Assembly: GCA_963662945.1 (NCBI GenBank)
Contig: OY759974.1
Coordinates: 512,001-576,000 of the forward strand
DNA: 64,000 nt
Direction of reading: 5' to 3'
DNA from: Arcobacteraceae bacterium
GTDB taxonomy: Bacteria > Campylobacterota > Campylobacteria > Campylobacterales > Arcobacteraceae
Within the stretch, counting starts at the first letter, position 1, and each line of letters begins with the position of its first letter. The notes beneath the pieces were generated by a model, which searched no databases, had not been told where the DNA came from, and worked only from the letters and a program-made list of their open reading frames with translations. This document shows positions 20,457 through 36,539 of the stretch, piece by piece. The translations under genes and the position numbers were made by a program.

Positions 20457-23400
20457 ATGTTTGAAAAATTTTTACGATTTTTTGTTGATAACTCAAGAAT
20501 GAATTATGTTCTTTTTATTTTAATTTTTGCTTTAGGTATTTGGTCTTATATAAAAATGCCAAAAGAGATCTTTCCAACATTTGATATGGACATGATTTCA
20601 ATCAGTGGTTCTTATACTGGTGCAAGTGTTGATATTCTTGATAAAATGGCAGTAAGTGAAATTGAAGATAATGTTAAATCTTTAGAAGGAGTTATAGAAA
20701 CGACAACTGTAATTAGTCCTGGTAAATTTACTATTATCTTGGAACTTCAAAAGGGAAAAGATCGATATAATATGGCAGATAAAGTTAAAGATGCTGTTGC
20801 TTTAACTAAAGGAGATCTTCCTAGTGATATGGATGAACCAACAGTAAGTGTTGTAGAAAGAAGTAGAGATTTAATCAATATTTCTCTTACATCTGACAAA
20901 TTTACTGTAGATCAAATGAAAAAATTTGCTGATGATTTCAAAAGTCAAATATTAACTATTAGTGGTATAAGTGAAGTAACAGTTTTTGGAGATAGCGATA
21001 AATATTATGAAATCCTTTTAGATGATAAAAAACTTGAAGCTTATGATATAGATAAAAATGAACTTTTTAATACTATTGGAACCTTATCGTATATATTTCC
21101 TATTGGAAAAATTGAAGGGACAACTAAACATTATTATATTTCTACATACAATGGAGCAAAAACTGCTAATGAGCTAGCAAATACACTTATAAAACTATCC
21201 AATGCAACACTCTATTTACGAGATATTGCAACGATTAAAAAAAGGTATGAAGACTCAGACACTCTTTACTCTTTCAATGGAAAAGATTCTATTTCCCTTG
21301 CTGTAAAGCAACTAGATACTGCAAATGCCATGAAGATATCTGAAGATATCAAACAACTTATTCAAAAAGTACAACCAAAACAGCCAAATATAGAGATTAG
21401 TATTAGTGATGATAATAGTGATAGGATAAAAGAAAGACTTGATATTGTAGGTTCTAATATTTTAATTGGAATCATTGCAATAGTTGTTCTAATTTGGTTA
21501 CTTATTAATGCCCGAATGTCATTTATAATCTTTATAGGTATCCCTACATCTTTTGTTATAGCTGCAGTTTACATGTATCTTTTTGGTTATAGTATTAATC
21601 TAATTTCACTAGTAGGAGTACTTATAGCCATAGGTATTGTTGTTGATGATGCTATAGTTGTAAGTGAGAATATTCAACAACATATTGAAGATGGTTGGGA
21701 ACCCAAGGAAGCTGCCATTGCAGGAGCCAAAGAGATGGTAGAACCTGTTACGATTGCTAGTCTTACGACACTTTTTTCATTTTTACCAGCTTTAATGATA
21801 AGTGGTACTATGGGAGAAGTTATGAAACTTATACCTATTGCACTCTCAGCACTTGTAGTTGCATCTCTAATAGAAACATTTTTATTCCTTCCAATTCACG
21901 CAGCACACACTCTAAAAAATGGCGCTAAAGTTACTGATTGGTCAAAAATAAATCTTACATATAATTATGCAATCCATTTTTTTATGCGATGGAAAAAATC
22001 ATTTTTAGTTATATTTATAATTTTAGTACCTTTATTAACAGCTATAATGGTTAAAAACTCAAAATTTCAAATGTTTCCAACTTTTGATGCTGATGACATT
22101 AAAATATCAATTAAAGCAAATCAAAATACAACATTAGAAGAATCTTTTGAAATAGTGAAGAAAATTGAAGCTGATCTTATTGCAAAAAAAGAACAATATC
22201 ATATTAAAAGTATTGATTCAAGAGCTGGTTATAGAAAAGACAGTGGAAACAATACAGAAAAATTTTCTTATGTAATGTATATGACTGTCGAATTAGAAAA
22301 ACTTAAAGCTAATAATATTTTAGATAAATATATAACACCTTACTTAAGTATTTATTATAATCCAGATGAAAGAAAAAGAACTTTAACCTCCCAAGAACTC
22401 TCTCGTGAATTAACAAAGTTTTTAAATGAAAAAGATTATAAAAAACAATTTAATCTTACTGATATATCTGTATTAGAAAGAAAAGTAGGACCTATTAAAG
22501 CAGACATTAAAATAGGACTTGTTTCAAGTGATGACACAAAAATTATTAAATCATTAGAGTTACTCACTAAAGAATTAAAAGCCATAGATGGAACGAAATC
22601 TGTTGCAAATTCTGCAAAGCTTGGAATTGATGAAATAAAACTAAAAGTTAATGCATATGGAGAACAACTAGGGATAACCGAATCAAGTATCGGAACTTAT
22701 CTTTCAAATCTCTATCTTACAAAGAAAAAATCAGTTTCATTTGATATTAAAGATATGCTTGATATTAAAATAGAATCCTTGAATAAAGATGATTTTGAAA
22801 CATTTAAAAAAACACCTATTCCAATCAATAATGGAACAGTTAGATTAAATGAAATATGTGATTTTATTGTTAAAAAATCTTTTGAACAACTCACAAAGGA
22901 TAACGGTGAAAAAAACTTTTATATTTATGCAAATGTGGACACAAAAATCATTACTTCTTCAGAAGTTATGGAAAAAATCCAACCACTTTTAGATGAAATT
23001 CAAAAAAATGGTATCAAAATAGTTCTCAAAGGAGAAGCTAAAAAGAAAAAAGAATTAGCCCAAGATATGTTAGCTGCAGTAGCATTAGCTTTAACACTTA
23101 TTATGCTTTCTATGTTATATTTATTTAACTCATTTAGAGAAACAGCAATTTTAATGTCAGTTATACCTTTTTCATTTTTAGGAGTACTTATTGGTCATCA
23201 ACTCTTAGGTTTAAATCTTTCAATGCCATCAATAATTGGAGCTTTAGGATTAGCAGGTGTTGTTATAAATGATGGTATTATTATGATGACTTATTTAAAA
23301 AAAGCTAAAACAATCGAAGATGTATTTATACGAGCAACAAAAAGGTTCAGACCAATTGTTCTTACAACTGTAACAACACTCATAGGAATGAGTTCATTAA

Positions 23401-23534
23401 TCTTTTTTGCTACAGGACAAGCAGTCATCTTCCAACCAATTGCCATAGCTCTTGGATTTGGACTTGCATGGGGAACAATATTAAATCTTATATATCTTCC
23501 TGTATTATATACTTTTGCACACAGATTAAAATAG
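20457..23534 (+). CDS. AcrB/AcrD/AcrF-family RND permease
   Basis: IVVDDAIVVSENI, RFRPIVLTT, 1025 aa. Confidence 0.92.
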   Translation: MFEKFLRFFVDNSRMNYVLFILIFALGIWSYIKMPKEIFPTFDMDMISISGSYTGASVDILDKMAVSEIEDNVKSLEGVIETTTVISPGKFTIILELQKGKDRYNMADKVKDAVALTKGDLPSDMDEPTVSVVERSRDLINISLTSDKFTVDQMKKFADDFKSQILTISGISEVTVFGDSDKYYEILLDDKKLEAYDIDKNELFNTIGTLSYIFPIGKIEGTTKHYYISTYNGAKTANELANTLIKLSNATLYLRDIATIKKRYEDSDTLYSFNGKDSISLAVKQLDTANAMKISEDIKQLIQKVQPKQPNIEISISDDNSDRIKERLDIVGSNILIGIIAIVVLIWLLINARMSFIIFIGIPTSFVIAAVYMYLFGYSINLISLVGVLIAIGIVVDDAIVVSENIQQHIEDGWEPKEAAIAGAKEMVEPVTIASLTTLFSFLPALMISGTMGEVMKLIPIALSALVVASLIETFLFLPIHAAHTLKNGAKVTDWSKINLTYNYAIHFFMRWKKSFLVIFIILVPLLTAIMVKNSKFQMFPTFDADDIKISIKANQNTTLEESFEIVKKIEADLIAKKEQYHIKSIDSRAGYRKDSGNNTEKFSYVMYMTVELEKLKANNILDKYITPYLSIYYNPDERKRTLTSQELSRELTKFLNEKDYKKQFNLTDISVLERKVGPIKADIKIGLVSSDDTKIIKSLELLTKELKAIDGTKSVANSAKLGIDEIKLKVNAYGEQLGITESSIGTYLSNLYLTKKKSVSFDIKDMLDIKIESLNKDDFETFKKTPIPINNGTVRLNEICDFIVKKSFEQLTKDNGEKNFYIYANVDTKIITSSEVMEKIQPLLDEIQKNGIKIVLKGEAKKKKELAQDMLAAVALALTLIMLSMLYLFNSFRETAILMSVIPFSFLGVLIGHQLLGLNLSMPSIIGALGLAGVVINDGIIMMTYLKKAKTIEDVFIRATKRFRPIVLTTVTTLIGMSSLIFFATGQAVIFQPIAIALGFGLAWGTILNLIYLPVLYTFAHRLK

Positions 23535-23597
23535 ATTAAATGAACTATAATCATCTTTTAGCTAAACTTATTGTCTATTTTTTATTAAGGAAAAACA

Positions 23598-25826
23598 TTG
23601 TTTAAAAAAATTATTTTACTCTCAACCCTTTATAGCACCTTACTTTTTAGTGATGGTACATTTGAAAACATTCAATTTGAAGGATTAACACAGATATCAA
23701 AAGAAGTTGCCTTAGAAACTATTAAATTAAAACAAGAAAATCATTATACAAATGACGAAATAAATGAGGCAATAAATAAATTTTATACTTTCAATTATTT
23801 TCAAGATATATCTGTAACAACACAAGGAAATGATTTAGTTTTTAACTTTAAAGAATATCCATTTATATCACAACTTGAGATGACTGGTTATAAAAATAGA
23901 GAAGATGATTTAGAAGTATTGTATACAGCAATGAATATAAAAAAAGGTGCAATGTATACGAAGAAAAGAATAGAATCTGCAAAAAATGCACTTCTAGCAG
24001 CACTAGATAGAGAAGGATATATAAACTCAGTAGTTGAAGTTGAAGTTGAAGATATTAGTGATACTAGTGTTGCTATAAAATTTAATGTTAATAAAGGTGA
24101 AGAAATCATTATTAAGAAAGTTTTATACAAAGGGGCAACAATATTTACAGATAGTGATTTTGAAACAATGATTGCAAATAAAGAGGAAGATTGTTGTTTC
24201 ACATGGTTTTTTGGACAAAATGATGGTGAAATAAATTTTGAAGAATTACGAATGGATAGCCCACGAATTAGAGAACTTTATTTACAAAATGGTTACTTAG
24301 ATGCGAAAGTTTCTGCTGCTTTTACAAAAATAGATTTTAATGCTAATACTGCTCAAATTGAATATATCATTACAGAAGGTAAACAATATAAAGTTAACGA
24401 TACAATTATTTATATAGATGAAAGTATCGTAAAAAGTGAGACAATCTATCCAAAACTAAAACTTGAAAAAAATGATATATTTGATATTAGCCAATTAAGA
24501 AAAGATCAAGAATATATCAAAACACAAGTTGCAAATCAAGGATATGCTTTTGCCGAAGTAAATTTTGATATTAAACCAAATAAAGAAAATAACACTGTAG
24601 ATATTGTTTATAATGTAATTCCAGGTGATAAAGTATATATCAATGATGTAATCATTGCAGGAAATAGTAGAACATTAGATAGAGTTATTAGAAGAGATAT
24701 TTATTTAGTTCCTGGTGATCTTTTTAATTTAACAGATTTTAAAGATTCTAAAAATAAATTACAAAGAACAGGTTATTTTGAAACAACAGATATTCAACAA
24801 AAAAGAATTAGTTCAGATAAAATGGATTTAATTGTAAATGTTACAGAAGCACCAACTGGAAACCTTATTTTTGGGGGAGGATATGGAAGTTATGAAGGTT
24901 GGATGTTAAATGCCAGCGTTAATGACTCAAATATCTTTGGAAGTGGTATGAATCTTGGGGTATCAATAGATTACTCAAAAATCAATACTGATTTATCTAT
25001 TGCACTTACTAATCCAGCAATTAGAGATAGTGAATACAGTGGTACTATCAAAGTTTATAATGAAGATTCAGAAATAGAAAATTACACTTCAACCTATGGA
25101 GATAGAGATACAAGTAGTACAGGTTTTCTTATAGGAGTTTCAAAAGCAATTGGACGACATACAAGAGCAGGTGTAAATTATGAAATTTCTGATACATCAA
25201 TCCACTATCAATTATTACCTTCAGCAAATGAAGATTTTATTACAAGTGCAATTACACCATATATAAACTTTAATAATACAGATGACTATTTTTTACCAAG
25301 AGAAGGGTTTATTGCGGGAACTAGTTACAAGTTTGCTGGTATTGGAGGAGATGCAAAATATGGCTTAAGTAATACATATTTTAAATATTTTTATGGTTTA
25401 GAAGAGCTCATAGATTATGATGTAATTTTTAGATATAAGAACAATATTAAAATCCTAACAGACAATGGTTTTATGCCAAACAATATGTCATTTGCACTTG
25501 GAGGTCCTAAAAGTTTAAGAGGATATGAATCATATGCATTTCAATCAAGTGATGAAGCAAATCATCCTTATAAACACTTTTTTTCAAATGCAATTGAATT
25601 AAGTTTACCATTAATCCCAAGTGCAAAGATGAGATGGGGTGTATTCTATGACTACGGTATGATAGGTGAAAATAATTTTACAGATATTAAAAGATCTGGA
25701 ACTGGTGCATTTTTATCATGGAATTCACCTGTAGGTCCTATCCAGTTTATCTTCTCACAACCACTTGATGATAAACCAAATGATAAAACATCAAGTTTTG
25801 AATTTAGTTTAGGTGGAAGTTTCTAA
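23598..25826 (+). CDS. bamA: Outer membrane protein assembly factor BamA
   Basis: POTRA repeats (GNSRTLDRVIRR), LRGY loop, WNSPVGP, C-terminal Phe. Confidence 0.95.
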   Translation: MFKKIILLSTLYSTLLFSDGTFENIQFEGLTQISKEVALETIKLKQENHYTNDEINEAINKFYTFNYFQDISVTTQGNDLVFNFKEYPFISQLEMTGYKNREDDLEVLYTAMNIKKGAMYTKKRIESAKNALLAALDREGYINSVVEVEVEDISDTSVAIKFNVNKGEEIIIKKVLYKGATIFTDSDFETMIANKEEDCCFTWFFGQNDGEINFEELRMDSPRIRELYLQNGYLDAKVSAAFTKIDFNANTAQIEYIITEGKQYKVNDTIIYIDESIVKSETIYPKLKLEKNDIFDISQLRKDQEYIKTQVANQGYAFAEVNFDIKPNKENNTVDIVYNVIPGDKVYINDVIIAGNSRTLDRVIRRDIYLVPGDLFNLTDFKDSKNKLQRTGYFETTDIQQKRISSDKMDLIVNVTEAPTGNLIFGGGYGSYEGWMLNASVNDSNIFGSGMNLGVSIDYSKINTDLSIALTNPAIRDSEYSGTIKVYNEDSEIENYTSTYGDRDTSSTGFLIGVSKAIGRHTRAGVNYEISDTSIHYQLLPSANEDFITSAITPYINFNNTDDYFLPREGFIAGTSYKFAGIGGDAKYGLSNTYFKYFYGLEELIDYDVIFRYKNNIKILTDNGFMPNNMSFALGGPKSLRGYESYAFQSSDEANHPYKHFFSNAIELSLPLIPSAKMRWGVFYDYGMIGENNFTDIKRSGTGAFLSWNSPVGPIQFIFSQPLDDKPNDKTSSFEFSLGGSF

Positions 25827-26872
25827 TGTCAAGATTGACAAATAAAGAAGCTTTAGATTTAATTCAAAATGCTTCTCTTATAGATTTAGGAATTATGGCT
25901 AGTGCTAAAAAGTCAGAATTACATCCTAAAAAAGTGACTACTTTTGTTGTTGATAGAAATATAAATTATACAAATATCTGTTGGGTAGATTGTAAATTTT
26001 GTGCTTTTTATCGACATGCAAAAGATGAAGATGCTTATATCTTAACCTATGAAGAGATAGATAAAAAAATAGATGAATTACTTGAAATTGGTGGTACACA
26101 AATTCTTTTTCAAGGTGGAGTTCATCCAAAATTAAAAATAGATTTTTATGAAGATTTAGTTGAACATATTCATAATAAATACCCAACTATTACAATCCAT
26201 GGATTTAGTGCTATTGAAATAGATTATATATCAAAAATCTCAAAAATTAGTTATAACGAAGTATTAGCAAGACTGAAGGCAAAAGGTCTAGCTTCTATTC
26301 CTGGTGCTGGTGCTGAAATTTTAAATGATGATGTAAGAGATATTATAGCACCTAAAAAACTTGATACAAAAGATTGGTTAGAAGTACATAGACAAGCTCA
26401 TTTATTAGATATTAAATCAACTGCAACAATGATGTTTGGAACAGTTGAAACAGATGAACAAATTATCGACCATTGGGATAAAATACGACAACTACAAGAT
26501 GAAACAGGCGGTTTTAGAGCATATATTATGTGGAGTTTTCAATCAGCACATACAAAACTAGCTCAAGAATTACCAAATATACCACATCAAAGTTCAAATA
26601 GATATCTAAGACTTTTAGCAGTTGCAAGACTCTATTTAGATAACTTTCCAAATATACAAAGTTCTTGGGTAACTCAAGGAAGTTATATAGGACAACTTGC
26701 TCTTAAATTTGGTGCAAATGATTTAGGTAGTACTATGATGGAAGAAAATGTGGTAAGTGCTGCAGGAGCAACAAATAGTATGAATCAACAAGAGATGATT
26801 AACTTAATTAGAGATGTGGGGGAAAACCCAGCAAAGAGGGATACTGCTTATAATATTTTAGAAAGATTTTAA
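25826..26872 (+). CDS. mqnC: Cyclic dehypoxanthinyl futalosine synthase (radical SAM)
   Basis: RNINYTNICWVDCKFCAF, QGGVHP, GANDLGSTMMEENVV. Confidence 0.93.
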   Translation: MSRLTNKEALDLIQNASLIDLGIMASAKKSELHPKKVTTFVVDRNINYTNICWVDCKFCAFYRHAKDEDAYILTYEEIDKKIDELLEIGGTQILFQGGVHPKLKIDFYEDLVEHIHNKYPTITIHGFSAIEIDYISKISKISYNEVLARLKAKGLASIPGAGAEILNDDVRDIIAPKKLDTKDWLEVHRQAHLLDIKSTATMMFGTVETDEQIIDHWDKIRQLQDETGGFRAYIMWSFQSAHTKLAQELPNIPHQSSNRYLRLLAVARLYLDNFPNIQSSWVTQGSYIGQLALKFGANDLGSTMMEENVVSAAGATNSMNQQEMINLIRDVGENPAKRDTAYNILERF

Positions 26873-26873
26873 T

Positions 26874-28211
26874 ATGGCATATTCGAAGAATTTGATTTAT
26901 AAAAAACTTTTTACTTTTTACTTTTTACTTTTTATTTTACAAGGAATGTTAATGTCAGCGACGCTAAAACAGATAGATTATAATAATACAGAAATTGCAA
27001 CTATTTACGAAAAAAACAAAAATTTACCAATATTTAATTTACAACTAGTATTTACAAATAGTGGTTACATTAATGATAACACAAAACCTGGAATAACTAA
27101 TATAATTTCACAACTTCTTAATGAAGGAACAAAAACAGATGGAGCTGTAAATTTTGCAAGAAAATTAGAAAATGAGGCTATTTCAATCAGTACCTCAACA
27201 GGCTTTGAAACATTTGTTATAGAAGTTAGCTGTTTAAAAAGTGAGTATAAAGCTGCTTTAAACTTTTTAGCACAACTTCTAAATGATCCAAATATCACAC
27301 AAAAATCATTAGATAAAATTAAGACATTGCAAATAAGTAAACTAAAACAAAAAGAAAATGATTTTGATTATGTTGCATCTTCTCATTTAAAACAAATTAC
27401 TTATAAAAACACCCCTTTAGAATATACTAGTTCAGGAACAATCGAAACAATAACTGCAATAGAACTTAAAGATGTAAAAAAACAATTAAAAACTATTTTA
27501 AACCTTGATAATCTTATTATTGCTGTAGGGGGAGATATTAGTTTTAAGGAGTTTTCATCAGATATATCTCCTATTTTGAAAAACTTACAATCTCTAGGAA
27601 AAACAAATTTTGAAAAAATTGAATATGCTAAAAAATCTCAAGAAAAAATAATTCTCAAAGAAACAGAACAATCATATATCTATTTTTCAAGCCCATTTTT
27701 TATTGATGCAGATTCAAAAGAAAATTATAAAGCAAAAGTTGCTTCTTTTATCCTTGGTGGAAGTGGTTTTGGAAGTCGTCTTATGGAAGAGATACGTGTT
27801 AAAAATGGTCTTGCTTACAGTGCCTATGGACAGATAAAAAACAATAAATCACATAGTAATTTTACTGGATATCTTCAAACAAAACTTGATAACACACAAA
27901 AAGCAAAAGAGATGGTTACTTCAATTGTAAAAGAATTTGTAAAAAATGGTGCTACACAAGAAGAGTTAGATGCAGCAAAAAACTTCTTAAGTGGTAGTGA
28001 ACCTTTACGTACTGAGACATTTTCACAAAGACTTAACAGAGCTTTTCATCTTTATTATAATGGGTTGGCATTTGAGTATCCACAACAAGAATTAGAACTT
28101 ATTGATAAATTATCATTAGAAGATTTAAATACATTTATTAAAGAACACAAAGAGATAGAAGATTTATCATTTTCTATCGTAACAAAAGAAGTTAAAGAGG
28201 AAAAAAATTAA
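26874..28211 (+). CDS. M16 (pitrilysin) family protein, non-catalytic subunit type; alternative start at 26952
   Basis: [28 protein letters not shown]; no HxxEH. Confidence 0.85.
26907..26934 (+). repeat. (CTTTTTA)x4 heptamer tandem repeat
   Basis: Four perfect consecutive copies read directly. Confidence 0.9.
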
Positions 28212-29491
28212 TGTTAAGATTTGCATCAAGTCCAACAGGAGATATGCATATAAGCAACTTAAGAATTGCCTTATTAAATTACATAGCATCAAAACAACTC
28301 AATGTTGAGCTGTTAATCAGAATTGATGATATTAATAAAGAGCAAAATATTGAAGGAAAAGATAAAGAGATTTTAGAAATACTTGCACTTTTTAATATTG
28401 ATTATACAAGAGTTGTTTATCAAAGTGAAAATATAAAATATCATACACAAATGGCTATGAAACTCTTACTTGATAAAAAAGCATTTAATTGTTTTTGTAG
28501 TGATGAATCATTGGAAAAAGATAGACAAAAAGCAGAACAAGAGGGAAAACCTTATGAATATAGTGGATTTTGTGAAACTATCAGTGATGAAACAAAATTC
28601 AATTGTAATGCACCATTTGTAGTAAGACTTAAAAAACCAGAGCATGCAATTAAATTTCACGATTTTTTAAAAAGTGATTGTTCTTACGAACCTTTTGAAG
28701 TGGATAGTTTTGTAATTTTAAAACATGACAAATCTCCAACTTATAATTTTGCATCATCAATTGATGATATGCTCTATGATGTTTCAATGGTTATACAAGA
28801 AGAGGAACAGCTTTGTAATACACCTAAACAGATACATGTAAGAGATTCTTTAGGATATGACAAAGAGGTTCAATATGCGCATATACCAACTATTACAAAT
28901 CTTGTAACAGAAAACTTCTCATCAGTAAAACACCTTGTTGATGACGGATATTTGCCAATTGCAATTGCAAACTATCTAATACTTCTAGGATATGAAACTC
29001 CAAAAGAAATATTTACAATTGAAGAAGCCCTTGAATGGTTTGATATAAATAATATTTCTAAAGAACCAGTAGAATTTGATATAAATAAACTTAACTTTAT
29101 CAATAATGAACATCTAAAAACTATGGATGAATTACGTTTATCTAAAATTTTAGGTTATGCAGATCAAGATATAGGAAAATTAGGAAAAATCTATCTTGAA
29201 GAATGTAATACAATTAAAGAAATAAAATCTAAGATTGATGCAATCTTTAGTAAAAAAGAGAATTTAGAAGATTCTAAAGAAGAATATAAAACAATAAAAG
29301 AGTGTTTAATCAATGCACCTTTTATAGAAGATTTTAATGAACTTACAAAATATATTACAAAAAAAACGATGCTAACTGAGGAACAACTTATGGTACCTTT
29401 ATATTATACTCTTACAGGAGTAAAAAATGGTCCAAATCTTAGTAAGATATATCCATTGATTAAAAACTATTTAGGGGAGATTATAAAATGA
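28211..29491 (+). CDS. Glutamyl-tRNA synthetase 2-like protein with degenerate catalytic motifs
   Basis: [17 protein letters not shown]...IDD, NTPKQ and anticodon-domain LTG...GP are present; KMSKR and RGEDH are absent. Confidence 0.85.
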
Positions 29492-29769
29492 TAGATTCAT
29501 TACTAGTTGCATTTTCAACAATACTAATAACAATTATATCACTTTACAAATGGGTTATAATTATTTCAGCACTATTATCATGGGTACAACCAGACCCATA
29601 TAATCCAATCGTTCAGATGTTATATAGACTAACAGAACCTGCATATGCTATAGTAAGACGATATATACCAACAGTATTTGGCGGAATGGATATGGCACCA
29701 CTTATTCTAATTTTTGCTTTACAATTTTTAGAGATTTTTTTGCAAAGTTTATTTGCGAAAATGTTCTAA
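29488..29769 (+). CDS. yggT: YggT-family membrane protein
   Basis: [21 protein letters not shown]. Confidence 0.92.
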
Positions 29770-29805
29770 TTTATAATAATTTTTAAAATCAAAGAGGTTT
29801 AATAG

Positions 29806-32067
29806 ATGAGTGAAAAAAAAGATTTTTTACGTACCATTGTTGAAGTGGACTTAAAATCAAACAAATACAAAGAGGTCGTTACAAGATTTCCTCCTGAGCC
29901 TAACGGATTCCCACACATCGGACATGCTAAATCTATCAATATAAATTTTGGTATAGCTAGAGATTATAATGGTCATTGTAATCTTAGAATGGATGATACA
30001 AATCCTACTACAGAAGATACAAAGTATGTGGAAGCCCTTAAAGATGCTGTTGAATGGTTGGGATATGATTGGGGAAATACTGTATATTATACATCTGATT
30101 ATTTTCCAAAAATTTATGACTATGCTGTACAACTTATTAAAATGGGCAAAGCATATGTTGATAGTATCAATGAAGAAGAGATGAGAGAATATAGAGGAAC
30201 TGTGACAGAAGCTGGAAAACGTAGTATTTATGCAGAGCGTTCTATAGAAGAAAATCTAGACCTTTTTGAAAGAATGAAAAATGGTGAATTCAAAGATGGA
30301 GAACATGTATTAAGAGCCAAAATAGATATGAGTGCAGCAAATATGAAAATGAGAGACCCTCTTTTATACAGAATCAGACATGCACATCATTTTAGAACTG
30401 GTGATAAGTGGTGTATTTATCCTATGTATGACTTTGCACATTGTTTATCTGATTATATTGAAGGAATTTCTCACTCTATATGTACATTAGAGTTTGAAAA
30501 TAATAGAGATATTTATGATTGGGTACTTGATGAATTACATCTAACTCCTCCTAGACCTTATCAACATGAGTTTGCAAGACTTGGTATCAATTATACAGTT
30601 ATGAGTAAAAGGAAGCTTTTAGAACTTGTGAATGGGAACTATGTAAATGGTTGGGATGATCCAAGAATGCCTACAATTGCAGGATATAAAAGAAGAGGAT
30701 ACACTCCTGAATCTATTAATAACTTTTGTGCTCAAATAGGTATTGCAAAAGCAAACTCAATGGTTGATGTGTCTCAACTTGAATTTTGTATTAGAGATGA
30801 TTTAAATACTAAAGTACCACGTGTAATGTGTGTTTTAGACCCACTTAAAGTTACAATCGAAAATTATGAGGGAAGTGAAAATATTGATGCGTCATATTAT
30901 CCACACGATGTGCCAAAAGAGGGAAATAGACAAATACCATTTTCTAGTGAAGTTTACATAGAACGTGAAGACTTTAGTGAAAATCCTATTAAAGGATATA
31001 ATAGACTTACACCAGACCAATCAGTAAGACTTAGACATGCTTATATTATTACTTGTAAAGAAATTATCAAAGATAAAAATGGCAATATTATTGAGATAAA
31101 AGCAGAATATAACCCAAATTCAAAAAGTGGAAGTGATACAAGTGGAATAAAAGTAAAAAGTGCTATTCAATGGGTTGATGTAAAAACAGCAAAGACAATA
31201 GAAGTAAGACTCTACGATAGATTATATAAAAATGAAATGCCTGAAGGGCTTGAAGATTTAAATCCAGATTCATTAAAAATAATAAAAAATGCCTTAATTG
31301 AACCAGCTGTAATTACAGACAAACCAGACGAGAGATTTCAGTTTGAAAGACAAGGATATTTTTATGCTGATCCTGTAGATTATACTCCTCAAAATCCAGT
31401 ATTTAATAAAATTGTTGGACTTAAAGACTCATGGGCTAAAAAAACAAAAACAGATGATAAACCAAAAGAGTTCAGAAAATCTGTAGAGAAAAAAGTTCAA
31501 GTAGAAGGTGTTGTCTCACCTATGAATGAAAGTGAACAAAAATTATTTGATAAATATACAAATGAATTAAAACTTAATAGTGAAGTTGCAAATACTTTAG
31601 CTCGTGACGAAAAACTATCTTCATTTTATCAAGAGGCTTTAAGTAAAGTAAATAGTCCTGTATCATTGGCTAATCTTGTAGCAAATGAAGTAGCAAGAGA
31701 ATTAAAAGAAAAACAAATAACAGAGTTAAAATTTAGTGCATCTCAAATAGCCGCACTTATTAAAATGATAGACGATGAAACAATATCAACTAAAATAGCT
31801 AAACAAGTGTTTGAAGAGATGGTTCAAAATGGTGAAAATCCTATGCAAATAGTTGAATCTAAGGGACTCGTTCAAATAAGTAACCCAAGTGTAATTTTAC
31901 CTATTATTGATGAAGTTATTGAAAAAAATCCTGACAATGTTGCTAAATATAAAGCTGGAAATAATAAACTTTTTGGTTTCTTTGTAGGGCAAGTATTAAA
32001 AGCTACTGGTGGGAAAGCAAATCCTAAAGTAGTCAATGAACTCGTGGAACAAAAACTCCAATCGTAA
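29806..32067 (+). CDS. glnS: Glutaminyl-tRNA synthetase with C-terminal GatB/YqeY domain
   Basis: RFPPEPNG, HIGH, YPMYDFAH, VMSKRK, QFERQGYF; tail GFFVGQVLKATGGKANP. Confidence 0.96.
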   Translation: MSEKKDFLRTIVEVDLKSNKYKEVVTRFPPEPNGFPHIGHAKSININFGIARDYNGHCNLRMDDTNPTTEDTKYVEALKDAVEWLGYDWGNTVYYTSDYFPKIYDYAVQLIKMGKAYVDSINEEEMREYRGTVTEAGKRSIYAERSIEENLDLFERMKNGEFKDGEHVLRAKIDMSAANMKMRDPLLYRIRHAHHFRTGDKWCIYPMYDFAHCLSDYIEGISHSICTLEFENNRDIYDWVLDELHLTPPRPYQHEFARLGINYTVMSKRKLLELVNGNYVNGWDDPRMPTIAGYKRRGYTPESINNFCAQIGIAKANSMVDVSQLEFCIRDDLNTKVPRVMCVLDPLKVTIENYEGSENIDASYYPHDVPKEGNRQIPFSSEVYIEREDFSENPIKGYNRLTPDQSVRLRHAYIITCKEIIKDKNGNIIEIKAEYNPNSKSGSDTSGIKVKSAIQWVDVKTAKTIEVRLYDRLYKNEMPEGLEDLNPDSLKIIKNALIEPAVITDKPDERFQFERQGYFYADPVDYTPQNPVFNKIVGLKDSWAKKTKTDDKPKEFRKSVEKKVQVEGVVSPMNESEQKLFDKYTNELKLNSEVANTLARDEKLSSFYQEALSKVNSPVSLANLVANEVARELKEKQITELKFSASQIAALIKMIDDETISTKIAKQVFEEMVQNGENPMQIVESKGLVQISNPSVILPIIDEVIEKNPDNVAKYKAGNNKLFGFFVGQVLKATGGKANPKVVNELVEQKLQS

Positions 32068-32079
32068 ACTCTTCAAAAA

Positions 32080-32107
32080 ATAAAGTGAAGTTAGAACTTC
32101 ACTTTAT
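32080..32107. terminator. Bidirectional hairpin between convergent glnS and thrC
   Basis: Perfect 13-bp inverted repeat ATAAAGTGAAGTT-AG-AACTTCACTTTAT. Confidence 0.7.
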
Positions 32108-33582
32108 CTTAAAAATCCTATAATCTTTTTTTCTAAGTCTTTAATATTAATCACTGTATCATGTATAATCGGACTACTAAATAGTTCTTTTATTTGTTTA
32201 GGAATTTTTAAATTTAATTTTTTAGAGATAGATTCTAATGCTTCTTTATCACTATATTTTTGATTATCTTCATTTAAAGCATTTAAAACTGTTGGTGAGA
32301 ACTTTGTCCACTCTGCTGTTGAGTATATCACTGTTTTAAGATTTTTATTCTCTCGTAACTCTTCATACCCTTTGATACAAGTTGCAGTATGTGGATCCAT
32401 TAAATACCCCTCATCAGCAAATGTTTTAATAGTTGTTAATCCATAAGCATCATCACTAAATGTAGCACTAAAATATTTTTGTAATGCTTCTAATTCAACT
32501 TTTGTATGTTCAAAATGCCCTTTTGTATTCAAGTCTTCCATAAGTTCTCTTGTTCTTATGGCACCACAAATATCATAGATAACTCTCTCTATATTTGATG
32601 ATTTTAAAATATCCATTGCAGGAGATTTTGTAAGTTTTAGGCGTTTCCCTCTTATATCATAGATACCCAATGTTAACCATTGTGTTAAGATATTATTTTC
32701 ATTTGAAGATACAAGAAGTTTTTCAACTGGTAGTCCCATCTTTTGTGCATAATAAGCACCTAGAACATTTCCAAAGTTTCCACTTGGTACATTGATATAA
32801 ATCTTTTCTCCAAATGTTATCTCTTTTTGTCGTAAGAGTTCTAAATAACTTTGGAAGTGATATACTATTTGAAATATAATTCTTCCAAAGTTTACACTAT
32901 TTGCAGCACTTAAACTTATACCATCTTTTTTTAACTCATTTTTAAATGATTGTGAACCAAGTAGATTTTTAAGGGCATTTTGTGCATCATCAAAGTTTCC
33001 ATTGATACCTAATACTTTTAGATTTTCTCCATTTTCTGTAATCATTTGAAGTTTTTGAACATCTGAAGTTCCACCATTTGGATAGAGACAAACAACTTTT
33101 ATACCCTCTTTGTTTTTAAAAGTATTGAGTGCTGCTGGTCCTGTATCTCCAGAAGTTGCTGCTAAAATAAGATACTCTTCCCCTCTTTTTTTAGCGATAC
33201 TACTTAAGATATATCCAAAAGGTTGTAGTGCCATATCTTTAAATGCACGAGTTGGTCCATGGTATTGTTCATTTACAAACAAATCATCTTTTATTTTTAC
33301 CACTGGCGATGGATTTTTACTATCATCAAAGTTATCATATAGTGCCAATGCTTCATTGATAGTTGCATCATCAATATCAATTTTAAAAGCTTTTAAAATA
33401 TCATATGCCAACTCTTTATAGCTTGTATTAAGATGTTTTGTTAAAAACTCTTCCCCTAAAACAGGTATTTGTGTAGGTACATAAAGTCCTCCAAAAGATG
33501 AACTTGGATTTAAAATCGCATCTGAAAACTCAACTTCTTTTGGTTTTACACCATCATTTCCTCTAGTTTCTATAAAACTCAT
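32104..33582 (-). CDS. thrC: Threonine synthase
   Basis: HGPTRAFKD PLP lysine, ATSGDTG, NSVNFGRI, PSGNFGN, DPHTA. Confidence 0.96.
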   Translation of the reverse strand: MSFIETRGNDGVKPKEVEFSDAILNPSSSFGGLYVPTQIPVLGEEFLTKHLNTSYKELAYDILKAFKIDIDDATINEALALYDNFDDSKNPSPVVKIKDDLFVNEQYHGPTRAFKDMALQPFGYILSSIAKKRGEEYLILAATSGDTGPAALNTFKNKEGIKVVCLYPNGGTSDVQKLQMITENGENLKVLGINGNFDDAQNALKNLLGSQSFKNELKKDGISLSAANSVNFGRIIFQIVYHFQSYLELLRQKEITFGEKIYINVPSGNFGNVLGAYYAQKMGLPVEKLLVSSNENNILTQWLTLGIYDIRGKRLKLTKSPAMDILKSSNIERVIYDICGAIRTRELMEDLNTKGHFEHTKVELEALQKYFSATFSDDAYGLTTIKTFADEGYLMDPHTATCIKGYEELRENKNLKTVIYSTAEWTKFSPTVLNALNEDNQKYSDKEALESISKKLNLKIPKQIKELFSSPIIHDTVINIKDLEKKIIGFLR

Positions 33583-33681: not shown

Positions 33682-34644
33682 TTAAAAATCCAATGGTGAT
33701 TTTATATCGCCTTTATTTAACTCCTTAACAACATGTGTATATATCATCGTAGTTTCGATAGATTTATGTCCTAATAACTCTTGTATGCTTCTTATATCTG
33801 TGCCATTCTGTAATAAATGTGTGGCATAAGAGTGTCTAAATATATGAGCTGTTACTCTTTTGTCTATATTAGATTTTGTAACTGCATTTTTTATATTTCT
33901 ACTTAATGTTACATCTAAAATATGATGCCGTCTTTGTTCACCACTTCGTGGATCTGTTGAAATTTTATCCATAGGAAAAATATACTGCCACTTTGTTTCA
34001 TATTTAGCATTTTTAAATTTACGCTCCAATGCATAAGGAATATAAACACTTCCAAATCCATCTTCTAAATCCTTTGTATGTAGTTCTTTTACTTTTTGTA
34101 CTTGTATTCTCAATTCATCCTTTATTTTTATAGGCAAAGGTAAAGTCCTATCTTTTAAAGATTTGCTATCCCAAATATAAATTTTATCGTATCCAAAGTC
34201 GATATCCTTAACCCTAATATTCTGAACTTCACTCATGCGAAGTCCGCATCCGTACATCAGTTTTACAATAAGTTGATAAATACCTTTCATATTTAGAATG
34301 ATATTTTTAACTTCATCTATAGTAAGCACTACAGGAATATGTTTCCTCTCTTGAGCTCTTAAAGCTTTAATATTTTCATTTTTTAATGATATATTCAAAA
34401 CTTGTTCGTAAAGAAAAACAATAGAATAAAAAGCTTGGTTTTGTGTAGTTGGGGATACATTTTGATTTTTTGCTAGATAGGTTAAATACTCTTCAATCTC
34501 TTTTTTACCCATAGTATTAGGATGTCGTTTATTATGAAACAAAATATATTTTTTTGCCCAATAAATATATACATTTTCTGTTTTTATACTATAGTGCTTT
34601 ACTCTTATTTTGTCCCTCATTATATCAAGTAATTTTTTTCCCAT
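33682..34644 (-). CDS. intI: Integron integrase (tyrosine recombinase, IntI)
   Basis: [25 protein letters not shown] plus IntI-specific insertion ALERK...WQYIFP...DPRSG..RRHH; start MGKK after AGGAG RBS. Confidence 0.96.
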
Positions 34645-34773
34645 AACAACTCCTAAATTATAAAAATGTTGTTTAAAGTTAAGATTTTCACTTTTAACAT
34701 ACATTTTGTACATTAAAGTTCTAAATTTCAATATAAAATAAACATAAAACTATAACAAAAATAATAATCTATG

Positions 34774-34806
34774 GTAAAAAATATTGCATTTTGTAATATT
34801 TTTTAC
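34774..34806. promoter_or_regulatory. 15-bp imperfect inverted repeat in the intI-attI intergenic region
   Basis: GTAAAAAATATTGCA-TTT-TGTAATATTTTTTAC. Confidence 0.45.
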
Positions 34807-34854
34807 AAAAAAACCTAAAATAAGCTCTTCGTATCAATATATTAAACGAGTGAA

Positions 34855-34877
34855 TTTAAGTACTTTATTTATATAAT
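34855..34877 (+). promoter_or_regulatory. Candidate cassette promoter Pc
   Basis: TATAAT at 34872-34877 with TTTAAG upstream, just before attI. Confidence 0.4.
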
Positions 34878-34881
34878 GTAT

Positions 34882-34900
34882 ATTCAATAAATAGTTAGCT
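34882..34900 (+). mobile_element. attI site (L box ATTCAAT, 5-nt spacer, R box GTTAGCT)
   Basis: GTTAGCT is the exact complement of AGCTAAC, which opens attC1. Confidence 0.8.
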
Positions 34901-34912
34901 TAAAGGAGTATC

Positions 34913-35542
34913 ATGCAAGATAGTATTATAGCAGGTTTAATTTCAGGTCTAATTGTAACGTTATTTATAATTATATTTAAATCATTATGGGATAAAATTA
35001 TAATTCCTTGGTTTGAAGAAAGAATTTATAAAGATGCTTACATTGAAGGCACATGGTATAGTTTACATCCTGATGAAGCTTATTTTAGACAAGAAATTTT
35101 TGCACTAAAAAGAACAGGTCATAATATTATTGGTACAATGGTTTGTGTTGAAGGTGAAGATAAGGGTGAAGAATATACTGTTGAAGGAAGTTTTAGAAAT
35201 ATGATATTACCTCTAATTTATGAAAGTTCGGATACTTCAAAAACAGATAGAGGAAGTATTACATTAAAAGCCATAAGAAATGGTGAAGTATTAAGAGGAA
35301 AAATTTCTTTATATAATAATGGAAATGATGATATTACTTCAGCTACAATTATTTTGTTTAAAAATAAAGATGAATTAGAAAAAACAGTAAAGCATATCAA
35401 ACAACAAAAAGAAAAAATATTAAAAATGAGATTAGAAAAACAAAAACTTGAAAAGAATTTAAAAGAAGTGGAAGCATTACCTGAGGAAGCTAACAAAACA
35501 TTGGAAGAAGAACGAGTGACCCCTACGACTGATAAAGCTTAA
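34913..35542 (+). CDS. Integron cassette 1: N-terminal TM, beta-rich domain, coiled-coil tail
   Basis: AAGGAG RBS right after attI; ORF runs 55 nt into attC1. Confidence 0.85.
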   Translation: MQDSIIAGLISGLIVTLFIIIFKSLWDKIIIPWFEERIYKDAYIEGTWYSLHPDEAYFRQEIFALKRTGHNIIGTMVCVEGEDKGEEYTVEGSFRNMILPLIYESSDTSKTDRGSITLKAIRNGEVLRGKISLYNNGNDDITSATIILFKNKDELEKTVKHIKQQKEKILKMRLEKQKLEKNLKEVEALPEEANKTLEEERVTPTTDKA

Positions 35543-35624
35543 ATTAGCTTTTATGTAGTGGTTATAAAAAGAAGTTAGTAAATATTTTGAGAGGGGTCAT
35601 CGTCCTTCAATTTAGGCGTTATAC
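35488..35624 (+). mobile_element. attC site 1 (137 bp)
   Basis: R'' AGCTAAC-AAAAC-L'' ATTGGAAG ... TGACCCCT/AGGGGTCA stem ... L' CTTCAAT-TTAGGC-R' GTTATAC; extra G in L''. Confidence 0.9.
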
Positions 35625-35654
35625 AGGTGAAGCAACCAATCAAGGAGAGCATTA

Positions 35655-36539
35655 GTGAAAAAAATATCCACAATATTAGTTTTGTTAGCGGTCATAACAT
35701 TTACAAGTATAGCAATAGCAGAAGACAACAAGTCGACTTTAACAATCAAGAAGAATATGCAAATGGAGAAGCTTCAAAAAATAGCAAAGGAACCTTCTAA
35801 TCATAATTTATATAAATTACTTTACGAAAATTCATCTAGCTCAAATGATAGGATAATTTCCACTATACAATGGTCCATCGGGATAATATCAACTTTTGTA
35901 ATAGTTTTACTTGGTAGTCAAATTTTCTTTAACTATCGGGTAAATAAAGAAGAAATCAGAGCAATTAGAAGTGAATTAGAAGAAAGTTTTTCTGATTTAA
36001 GAGCTAATGCATTGGATGCCTCAAGCAAAGAAAGAAAAGAAATAATTAATAAGATTGATGACAAACTTGCAAAGGCAGAACAAAGTTATAAAGAAAGTAT
36101 ATCAAGTCATTACGCTGAACATGGTAGATACATTGATACAAAACTAGAGTCATTTGATAAGGATTTAATTAGATTAAAAGATACATTAAAAGTAGACATT
36201 AGTTATTTATCAATTGATTTAAAAAGATTAGAGGGTGAGGTATGGAAGCTAAAGGGTGTTCACGCAAATGCACTTAAGGATTTTATAAGTACTGTAGAGC
36301 TAGAAATTGAAAATGGTATCTCTCCAAAATATTCGTTAGATCATACAATAGAAACTCTTCAAAATGTCGAAAAAATTAGTAAGGATGATCGTATTGCACT
36401 AGAAGAGATGATAAAAAAAGTACCCAAAGAATATGATGCTAAAGTATCAAAGATTAAAGAACTATATTTATCCTTACCTCAATATATTTATGCTGAGGAT
36501 CCTCAAAGACCAGGTTATTTAAAAACAGTAGATCTTTAG
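35655..36539 (+). CDS. Integron cassette 2: signal peptide, TM, helical/coiled-coil protein of unknown function
   Basis: AAGGAG RBS, GTG start, bounded by GTTATAC and GTATAAC core sites. Confidence 0.85.
   Translation: MKKISTILVLLAVITFTSIAIAEDNKSTLTIKKNMQMEKLQKIAKEPSNHNLYKLLYENSSSSNDRIISTIQWSIGIISTFVIVLLGSQIFFNYRVNKEEIRAIRSELEESFSDLRANALDASSKERKEIINKIDDKLAKAEQSYKESISSHYAEHGRYIDTKLESFDKDLIRLKDTLKVDISYLSIDLKRLEGEVWKLKGVHANALKDFISTVELEIENGISPKYSLDHTIETLQNVEKISKDDRIALEEMIKKVPKEYDAKVSKIKELYLSLPQYIYAEDPQRPGYLKTVDL

Follow-up and report, generated by a model that had tools for sequence, protein, structure and literature searches.

We analysed a 64,000-nt stretch of DNA (the window; GCA_963662945.1, OY759974.1) from an Arcobacteraceae bacterium whose genome is a single 2.50-Mb contig, and in it a 426-aa open reading frame (ORF) related to GluRS2 (gene gltX2), the second glutamyl-tRNA synthetase (GluRS) of Campylobacterota. 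The ORF lies between an M16-family peptidase-like gene and yggT, and the latter is followed by a gene for glutaminyl-tRNA synthetase fused to YqeY (GlnRS-YqeY) (Table 1). An earlier reading of this DNA from its letters alone (the sequence-only reading) had described the ORF as translationally coupled on both sides and as lying two genes upstream of an intact GlnRS. Both descriptions were borne out, the former by overlaps of the TAATG and ATGA type, the latter by a match to NF011291 and by intact HIGH (residue 37) and VMSK (residue 265) motifs in the fusion protein. The gene order mqnC-M16-gltX2-yggT was common to relatives with an intact and with a degenerate GluRS2, and gltX2 and yggT were adjacent or overlapping in all loci examined in five families, irrespective of whether GluRS2 was intact or degenerate; a second family of the same order is covered here by 30/30 loci, and three further families by single genomes. 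The two form a strongly conserved gene pair.

Table 1. Features of the gltX2 locus and the tRNA-Gln gene (positions are 1-based within the window)
Feature	Positions	Strand	Basis
Degenerate GluRS2 orthologue, 426 aa, full predicted GluRS fold without catalytic signatures	28211..29491	+	ORF, profiles, alignment, AlphaFold2, Foldseek
Residues 3-16 of the same, RFASSPTG...HISN replacing RFAPSPTG...HIGN (Glu/ATP site, HIGH signature)	28217..28258	+	alignment
Residues 37-42, RIDDIN replacing RIEDTD	28319..28336	+	alignment
Residues 194-200, VIQEEEQ replacing VIRGEDH; Arg of the Glu-binding motif changed to Gln	28790..28810	+	alignment
Residues 222-239, [18 protein letters not shown]; KMSKR loop deleted	28874..28927	+	alignment
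M16-family peptidase-like gene	26874..28211	+	ORF, Pfam; stop shares one base with the GluRS2 start in TAATG (28209-28213)
yggT, 93 aa, YGGT family	29488..29769	+	ORF, Pfam; start overlaps the GluRS2 stop in ATGA (29488-29491)
GlnRS-YqeY fusion with intact HIGH and VMSK, 753 aa	29806..32067	+	NF011291, 1236.7 bits
tRNA-Gln (UUG), U1-A72 pair, only tRNA-Gln of the genome	12624..12698	-	

The window protein matched Pfam PF00749 (tRNA-synt_1c) with 191.9 bits and NCBIfam TIGR00464 (gltX_bact) with 333.3 bits, above the cut-off of 289.95. An AlphaFold2 model based on a 63-sequence alignment reached a mean predicted local distance difference test score (pLDDT) of 90.6, and its best Foldseek matches were all bacterial GluRS (2cfo, E 7e-30; Thermus thermophilus GluRS 1j09, template modelling (TM) score 0.86), with the Rossmann catalytic domain, the insertion domain and the helical anticodon-binding domain all predicted to be present. 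The GluRS scaffold that had been recognised from the letters was thus confirmed by profiles and model alike. The protein was not recognised as GluQRS, since it scored 135.6 bits against the TIGR03838 cut-off of 276.7 and, at 426 aa, carries the C-terminal helical domain. In the GluRS2 gene tree, which largely follows genera, it was nested within its own genus. Because of this, and because the synteny is the same for both states, the ORF is a vertically inherited GluRS2 orthologue and no stray paralogue. GluRS1 is encoded elsewhere in the genome (542 bits, with PSPTG, HIGG and KLSK intact).

We aligned the window protein to 149 orthologues of its family and 119 database homologues. The intact orthologues carry RFAPSPTG, HIGN, RIEDTD, V(I/V)RGED(H/Q) and TGKKMSKRD, and all five of these catalytic signatures are altered in the window protein. 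It has HISN in place of the class I HIGH signature (H-phi-G-x), at a position that is free to vary among the degenerate orthologues, and SSPTG, RIDDIN and VIQEEEQ in place of the Glu-site motifs PSPTG, xxEDTD and RGED. A 7-residue gap was found at the position of GKKMSKR, no K-x-S-K occurs anywhere in the region, and in the alignment to solved GluRS chains the KLSKRHGA loop was likewise absent. The altered motifs and the missing loop claimed by the sequence-only reading were thus found in full, and the degenerate states are not those of intact GluRS2, the orthologues of which have canonical motifs. Since 53/56 relatives lacking glnS keep all five motifs, the changes in the window protein are not a matter of chance. 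Across the degenerate lineages the HIGH equivalents were HISN, QLGD, HIED, DIGN, TIGN and SVEN, with no new signature fixed, and the KMSK-loop deletions varied in length by lineage, as expected if they arose in separate loss events. We infer that the window GluRS2 would be without aminoacylation activity, and that it is expressed.

The motif state was closely associated with the presence of glnS. Among 184 Arcobacteraceae genomes, all matching the protein, glnS (TIGR00440) was found in 124, and the best GluRS2 match was scored for the five motifs in 150. As a result, 85 of the 94 glnS-carrying genomes kept 0-2 motifs and 9 kept all five, whereas 53 of the 56 without glnS kept all five and 3 kept 0-2; the count was bimodal, with 0/150 genomes at 3-4 motifs. 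In the second family, for which 121 genomes were sampled and 110 scored, the glnS-carrying genomes (n = 44) comprised 37 with 0-2 motifs, 5 with 3-4 and 2 with five, and those without glnS (n = 66) comprised 60 with five motifs, 1 with four and 5 with 1-2, the last being 77-94% complete. A class-wide sample showed glnS in further families as well, and among five such genomes from three families GluRS2 was degenerate in 4/5 and intact in 1/5. The co-occurrence of motif loss with glnS, which had been proposed as a check, was thus seen in two families and, in the Arcobacteraceae, also on independent pairs (below). Among the nine Arcobacteraceae genomes with glnS and an intact GluRS2, the glnS of G069 has 15 in-frame stops and that of G078 is a fragment; the three with a degenerate copy and no glnS are drafts, 97%, 74% and 91% complete. 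Intact GluRS2 together with glnS is known in good assemblies, whereas a degenerate copy without glnS occurred only in drafts, 74-97% complete, and from this asymmetry of the mixed states glnS seems to have arrived first and GluRS2 to have decayed afterwards.

We found no genome with both an intact and a degenerate GluRS2; the extra matches examined in G065, G141, G082 and G114 turned out to be fragments at the ends of contigs, GluRS1-like copies or a stretch in decay. In G114 (C290:5767-8937), a gltX-like stretch lies beside a glnS-like one, each with 20-31 in-frame stops, while open copies are present on another contig of this draft; a second copy of the pair that has decayed, or simply a poor contig, may account for this. 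G082 has two GluRS1-like matches (~35% identity to the query) besides an intact GluRS2, at 3% contamination. G547, which carries glnS and is 95% complete, gave no GluRS2 match and was considered as a case of gene loss, but it was set aside as uninformative, as the glnS-less G528 (94% complete) gave none either.

Loss of the motifs recurred across the gene tree. In a FastTree tree of 150 Arcobacteraceae sequences, we counted 9 changes between the intact and the degenerate state, at least 6 of them forced by well-supported branches, and there were still 9 when the motif columns were excluded from the tree; the tree of 109 sequences from the second family gave 16 changes, at least 7 of them forced. 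It is implausible that five motifs together with a loop were regained, and these changes were therefore taken as repeated losses. For 8 phylogenetically independent pairs of Arcobacteraceae, glnS differed in the same direction as the motif state in a mean of 5.6 pairs and was unchanged in 2.4, with 0 pairs running the opposite way (median sign-test p 0.03).

We then considered the selection acting on the degenerate copies. None of the 150 listed Arcobacteraceae matches has an internal stop, 88/88 degenerate copies are open at 413-433 aa, and the full-length degenerate copies of the second family are all open as well. In the AT-rich window ORF, 224 of the 3834 possible single-base changes lead to a stop, so that ~75 nonsense hits would be expected per substitution per site, and degenerate clades extend over several genera, with synonymous divergence (dS) already saturated. 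The ratio of non-synonymous to synonymous substitution (dN/dS), estimated by the pairwise Nei-Gojobori method, was 0.20 between degenerate copies at dS<0.3 (14 pairs) and 0.31 at dS 0.3-0.7 (252 pairs), compared with 0.086 (8 pairs) and 0.14 (258 pairs) between intact ones. Close degenerate pairs with common derived deletions, the divergence of which therefore postdates the loss, gave 0.12-0.33, and in the second family degenerate copies showed 0.14-0.21 and intact ones 0.03-0.10. In a comparison of the window with the four relatives nearest to it, the ratio was 0.225 for GluRS2, 0.062 for MqnC, 0.113 for M16, 0.085 for YggT and 0.125 for GlnRS; the degenerate GluRS2 evolves at about twice the rate of its neighbours, yet far from neutrally. 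The sequence-only reading had preferred retention as a pseudoenzyme to decay, and had named a dN/dS near 1 and frameshifted relatives as signs of plain pseudogenisation. The ratio between degenerate copies was instead 0.2-0.3, and no convincing frameshifted relative was found. The single candidate, G090, with 13 stops, was rejected as a true pseudogene, since M16 and mqnC of the locus are split over frames alike and gatB has a stop, which points to a probable assembly error in this genome (81% complete, one contig). The preference for retention is thus upheld by the link to glnS, the low dN/dS and the open frames.

Constraint has relaxed unevenly along the protein. Pooled dN/dS for degenerate and intact copies, respectively, was 0.40 and 0.07 at the former motif columns, 0.24 and 0.09 in the second half of the Rossmann fold, 0.25 and 0.165 in the insertion domain, and 0.32 and 0.25 in the anticodon-binding domain at the C-terminus; the N-terminal 85 residues of the degenerate copies gave 0.14. 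Loss of catalytic residues thus goes together with purifying selection elsewhere (0.2-0.3 against 0.40 at the motif columns), which would mark these proteins as pseudoenzymes. Residues invariant in intact forms and freed in degenerate ones include P6, G10, H13, G15, N16, T41, G197 and D199, and the loop-flanking R240, D241 and S244. The Cys motif of a putative zinc-binding domain is invariant, and 39-49% of the columns per region are at least 80% conserved across genera in the degenerate forms. No column was found to be fixed to a new residue in these forms, and this absence argues for part of an old role rather than a new one. The degenerate copies have also become acidic. Their net charge was -14.1 against -4.8 for intact copies in the Arcobacteraceae and -16.5 against -8.2 in the second family, and nearly the whole shift falls in the catalytic domain (-12.9 against -4.9, and -14.2 against -6.7), while the Lys+Arg count of the C-terminal domain is unchanged. 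The shift was seen in 13/13 genera that hold both states.

On these data the window GluRS2 is likely to be catalytically dead and to be kept by selection acting on the protein itself. In Campylobacterota without GlnRS, GluRS2 loads Glu onto tRNA-Gln for amidation by GatCAB. A lineage that acquired GlnRS-YqeY would make Gln-tRNA-Gln directly, and the catalysis by GluRS2 would become redundant, or indeed harmful. Erosion of the KMSK loop and of the sites for ATP and Glu would then have followed, and the catalytic domain would have lost positive charge, while the protein stayed folded, full-length and non-catalytic under purifying selection. Its present role would be a binding role that the intact GluRS2 already had, exerted through the anticodon-binding domain and the fold core, with the tRNA-Gln anticodon arm or a protein as the partner. 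That this role was inherited from the intact enzyme is our best guess, because no new conserved residues appeared and constraint on the C-terminal domain comes close to that in the active forms; binding through that domain is favoured by this near-unchanged constraint and by its unchanged Lys+Arg count. The support for tRNA binding in particular is mixed. The predicted complex of the window GluRS2 with YggT (alignments A1 and A2) scored 0.41, compared with 0.43 for the control. A wider proposal, which we put forward tentatively and hold to be a little less probable than its opposite, is that the GluRS2 of Campylobacterales has a hidden second, non-catalytic function, and that it was disarmed at each gain of GlnRS-YqeY (at least 13 times in two families) yet kept for that function. 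Candidates would be a scaffold linked to tRNA-Gln or to GatCAB, or a partner for YggT, its constant neighbour. If so, the degenerate copies would make up a natural separation-of-function series for a moonlighting role of a synthetase.

The main rival to retention of the protein supposes that the protein is idle, and that its ORF stays open only for read-through to the overlapping yggT and, in the clade of the window, to the essential glnS downstream, stops and frameshifts being polar and purged. The TAATG and ATGA overlaps are real, yggT adjoins or overlaps gltX2 in all loci examined in the five families and in both states, no terminator-like site was found within 23400-32400, no residue has become newly conserved, and the copies shrink in frame, in one case by 87 residues with the yggT overlap kept. 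A mere spacer, however, should drift towards a dN/dS of 1, whereas the ratio observed was 0.2-0.3, with 0.14 for the first 85 residues; it would be expected neither to hold 39-49% of its columns at 80% conservation or more across genera nor to keep the Cys motif invariant, and frame-keeping alone would permit far larger deletions than those seen. We thus regard this explanation as unlikely. Less credible still is slow decay of a plain pseudogene, in which the redundancy is recent and the frame has so far escaped a hit. The apparent loss of catalysis, the roughly twofold faster evolution compared with intact forms, the long branches and the varying lengths would all suit it, but whole multi-genus clades are degenerate at saturated dS, the expected ~75 nonsense hits per substitution per site have left every one of the 88 Arcobacteraceae copies and all full-length copies of the second family open, and dN/dS is far below 1. 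This reading is already largely refuted, and we give it the least weight of all.

It is very improbable, though slightly less so than slow decay, that the protein is still an enzyme, either a GluRS with non-canonical motifs or a catalyst of new chemistry on the old scaffold. Its score above the gltX_bact equivalog cut-off, the complete fold of the model, the first His of HIGH kept in the window copy and the conserved Cys motif could be taken in this sense. However, the motif states vary freely between lineages with no new signature fixed, the mobile KMSK loop has been deleted to unlike lengths in different lineages, the Arg of the Glu site has become Gln, and dN/dS at the motif columns has risen from 0.07 to 0.40. 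A last alternative, which can hold together with retention for a binding role, is that the loss of catalysis and of positive charge was itself driven by selection rather than by drift. An active or tRNA-binding GluRS2 would have been harmful once GlnRS had been gained, either by competing for the single tRNA-Gln or by producing a load of Glu-tRNA-Gln. The absence of Arcobacteraceae genomes at 3-4 motifs among the 150, the convergent acidic shift in 13/13 genera, the concentration of the shift in the catalytic domain, and the single tRNA-Gln gene of the genome would fit such a course. Against this, 7 Arcobacteraceae genomes combine an intact GluRS2 with an intact glnS, and the second family has intermediates at 3-4 motifs, so that coexistence is tolerated, and the loss of the KKMSKR loop explains part of the charge shift. 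Selection for disarmament is therefore a possible, though on the whole unlikely, addition, and a good deal more probable than any of the other three.

Several points weigh against the preferred reading, a dead GluRS2 retained for binding. The role assigned to it is a guess, and the acidic shift would speak against strong tRNA binding. A search of sequencing runs for the locus gave 6 contig matches from 2 studies and none in RNA. In the C-terminal domain, on which that role would depend, K295, K386, R405 and N416 are invariant in intact forms and variable in degenerate ones. The degenerate copies tend to become shorter without leaving the frame (394-433 aa), and in one genus residues 86-172 (87 residues) are deleted in frame with the yggT overlap kept; such in-frame shrinkage would also be expected if the overlap with yggT imposed a constraint on the frame. 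The dN/dS values come from a simple method over pairs that are not independent, and the trees were built from the trait-bearing gene itself. In the second family, the independent pairs gave 4.2 in the same direction, 0.5 in the opposite and 2.3 unchanged, which is not significant (p 0.22), the informative pairs being too few. Finally, 34/184 Arcobacteraceae genomes and 11/121 of the second family were unscored, and many genomes are drafts, so that the records lacking glnS are in part incomplete assemblies.

The retained GluRS2 resembles HisZ, the HisRS-like regulatory subunit of ATP phosphoribosyltransferase, which does not aminoacylate and is kept for a non-catalytic role. The architecture of HisZ is ancient and fixed and its partner is known, whereas the degenerate GluRS2, presumably likewise a synthetase-derived non-enzyme, is young and has many parallel origins and no known partner. 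To our knowledge, paralogues of aminoacyl-tRNA synthetases with new non-charging roles are few and mostly ancient; the switch in GluRS2 appears recent and many times parallel, with a clear trigger in the horizontal gain of GlnRS. The forms that occur in close relatives range from intact through intermediate and degenerate to shortened, and would thus provide a rare comparative series for finding which parts of a synthetase matter beyond catalysis. GluQRS/YadB (1nzj and 4a91 among the structural matches) is a GluRS-derived paralogue of the catalytic domain, ~300 aa long, which has no anticodon-binding domain and keeps the catalytic motifs; the window protein, by contrast, has the C-terminal domain.

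The closest known protein is the Helicobacter pylori GluRS2, a member of the same paralogue class, that is, the second GluRS of Campylobacterota beside the canonical GluRS1 and GatCAB; its specificity for tRNA-Gln is described in PMC2777447. The intact orthologues of the families studied carry the H-phi-G-N signature that is given for GluRS2 by Dasgupta and Basu 2014 (PMC3927822). Compared with the H. pylori enzyme, the window protein has lost HIGH, KMSK and the Glu-site residues and stands beside a GlnRS, and it could presumably not do the same job. According to PMC3927822, GluRS2 and a YqeY-fused GlnRS occur together in 6/10 epsilon-proteobacterial genomes, with Arcobacter nitrofigilis and Sulfurimonas autotrophica named; the fused GlnRS is traced to Deinococcus-Thermus by horizontal transfer and is called 'possibly non-functional', as GluRS2 is always present. 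Because of the motif states and the dN/dS of both genes, our data point the other way: GlnRS would be the intact and constrained partner and GluRS2 the dead one. PMC3927822 also cites an experiment in which one of the two GluRS copies of Thermotoga maritima charged neither tRNA. This 'inactive GluRS2' is an earlier example of a GluRS paralogue that does not charge, and differs in having arisen by local duplication, with no link to a gain of GlnRS. A literature search that ended short of subscription journals and supplementary files brought up no account linking a catalytically dead GluRS2 to GlnRS, and PMC3927822 alone among its results touched on the coexistence of the two.

HIGH and VMSK were present in 5/5 GlnRS sequences, with a dN/dS of 0.105-0.145 among the 5 relatives. 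The window GluRS2 is not the sole route to Gln-tRNA-Gln in a genome lacking GlnRS, the situation in which a functional GluRS2 would be recognised, as the intact GlnRS-YqeY is present. Both gatA and gatB were found in the genome over their cut-offs, and no asnS profile match in it exceeded the cut-off (best 107.5 against 342.6 bits); indeed, gatB is kept and asnS lacking in 5/5 genomes checked. GatCAB is thus kept because there is no asparaginyl-tRNA synthetase and Asn-tRNA-Asn still needs it. For most Arcobacteraceae and many genomes of the second family, the data imply direct synthesis of Gln-tRNA-Gln, with GatCAB serving Asn only. The motif state of GluRS2 would therefore predict the Gln pathway of a Campylobacterota genome and be useful for annotation, where pipelines at present call the apparently dead copy 'glutamate--tRNA ligase'.

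Around the locus, bamA, mqnC, the M16-like gene, the degenerate gltX2, yggT and glnS run head to tail over 23598-32067 with shared or near-shared junctions, base 25826 being common to the bamA stop and the mqnC start. Among the relatives, glnS stands next to gltX2 in at least three arrangements and elsewhere lies far away: it is downstream of yggT in the clade of the window, directly upstream of gltX2 in G126, G123 and G249, and divergently upstream of gltX2 in several genomes of the second family. On the minus strand, 1.6 kb beyond glnS and past a threonine synthase gene, lies a tyrosine recombinase of 349 aa (Phage_integrase with an N-terminal SAM-like domain), which is followed by ORFs of 209 and 294 aa without a Pfam match; this region (33682-36539) could mark where an island has its edge, or could be an integron-like array. 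Outside the window, a third tRNA-Glu(UUC) at C1:2340676-2340751 is clearly unlike the two identical copies at C1:1104068-1104431.

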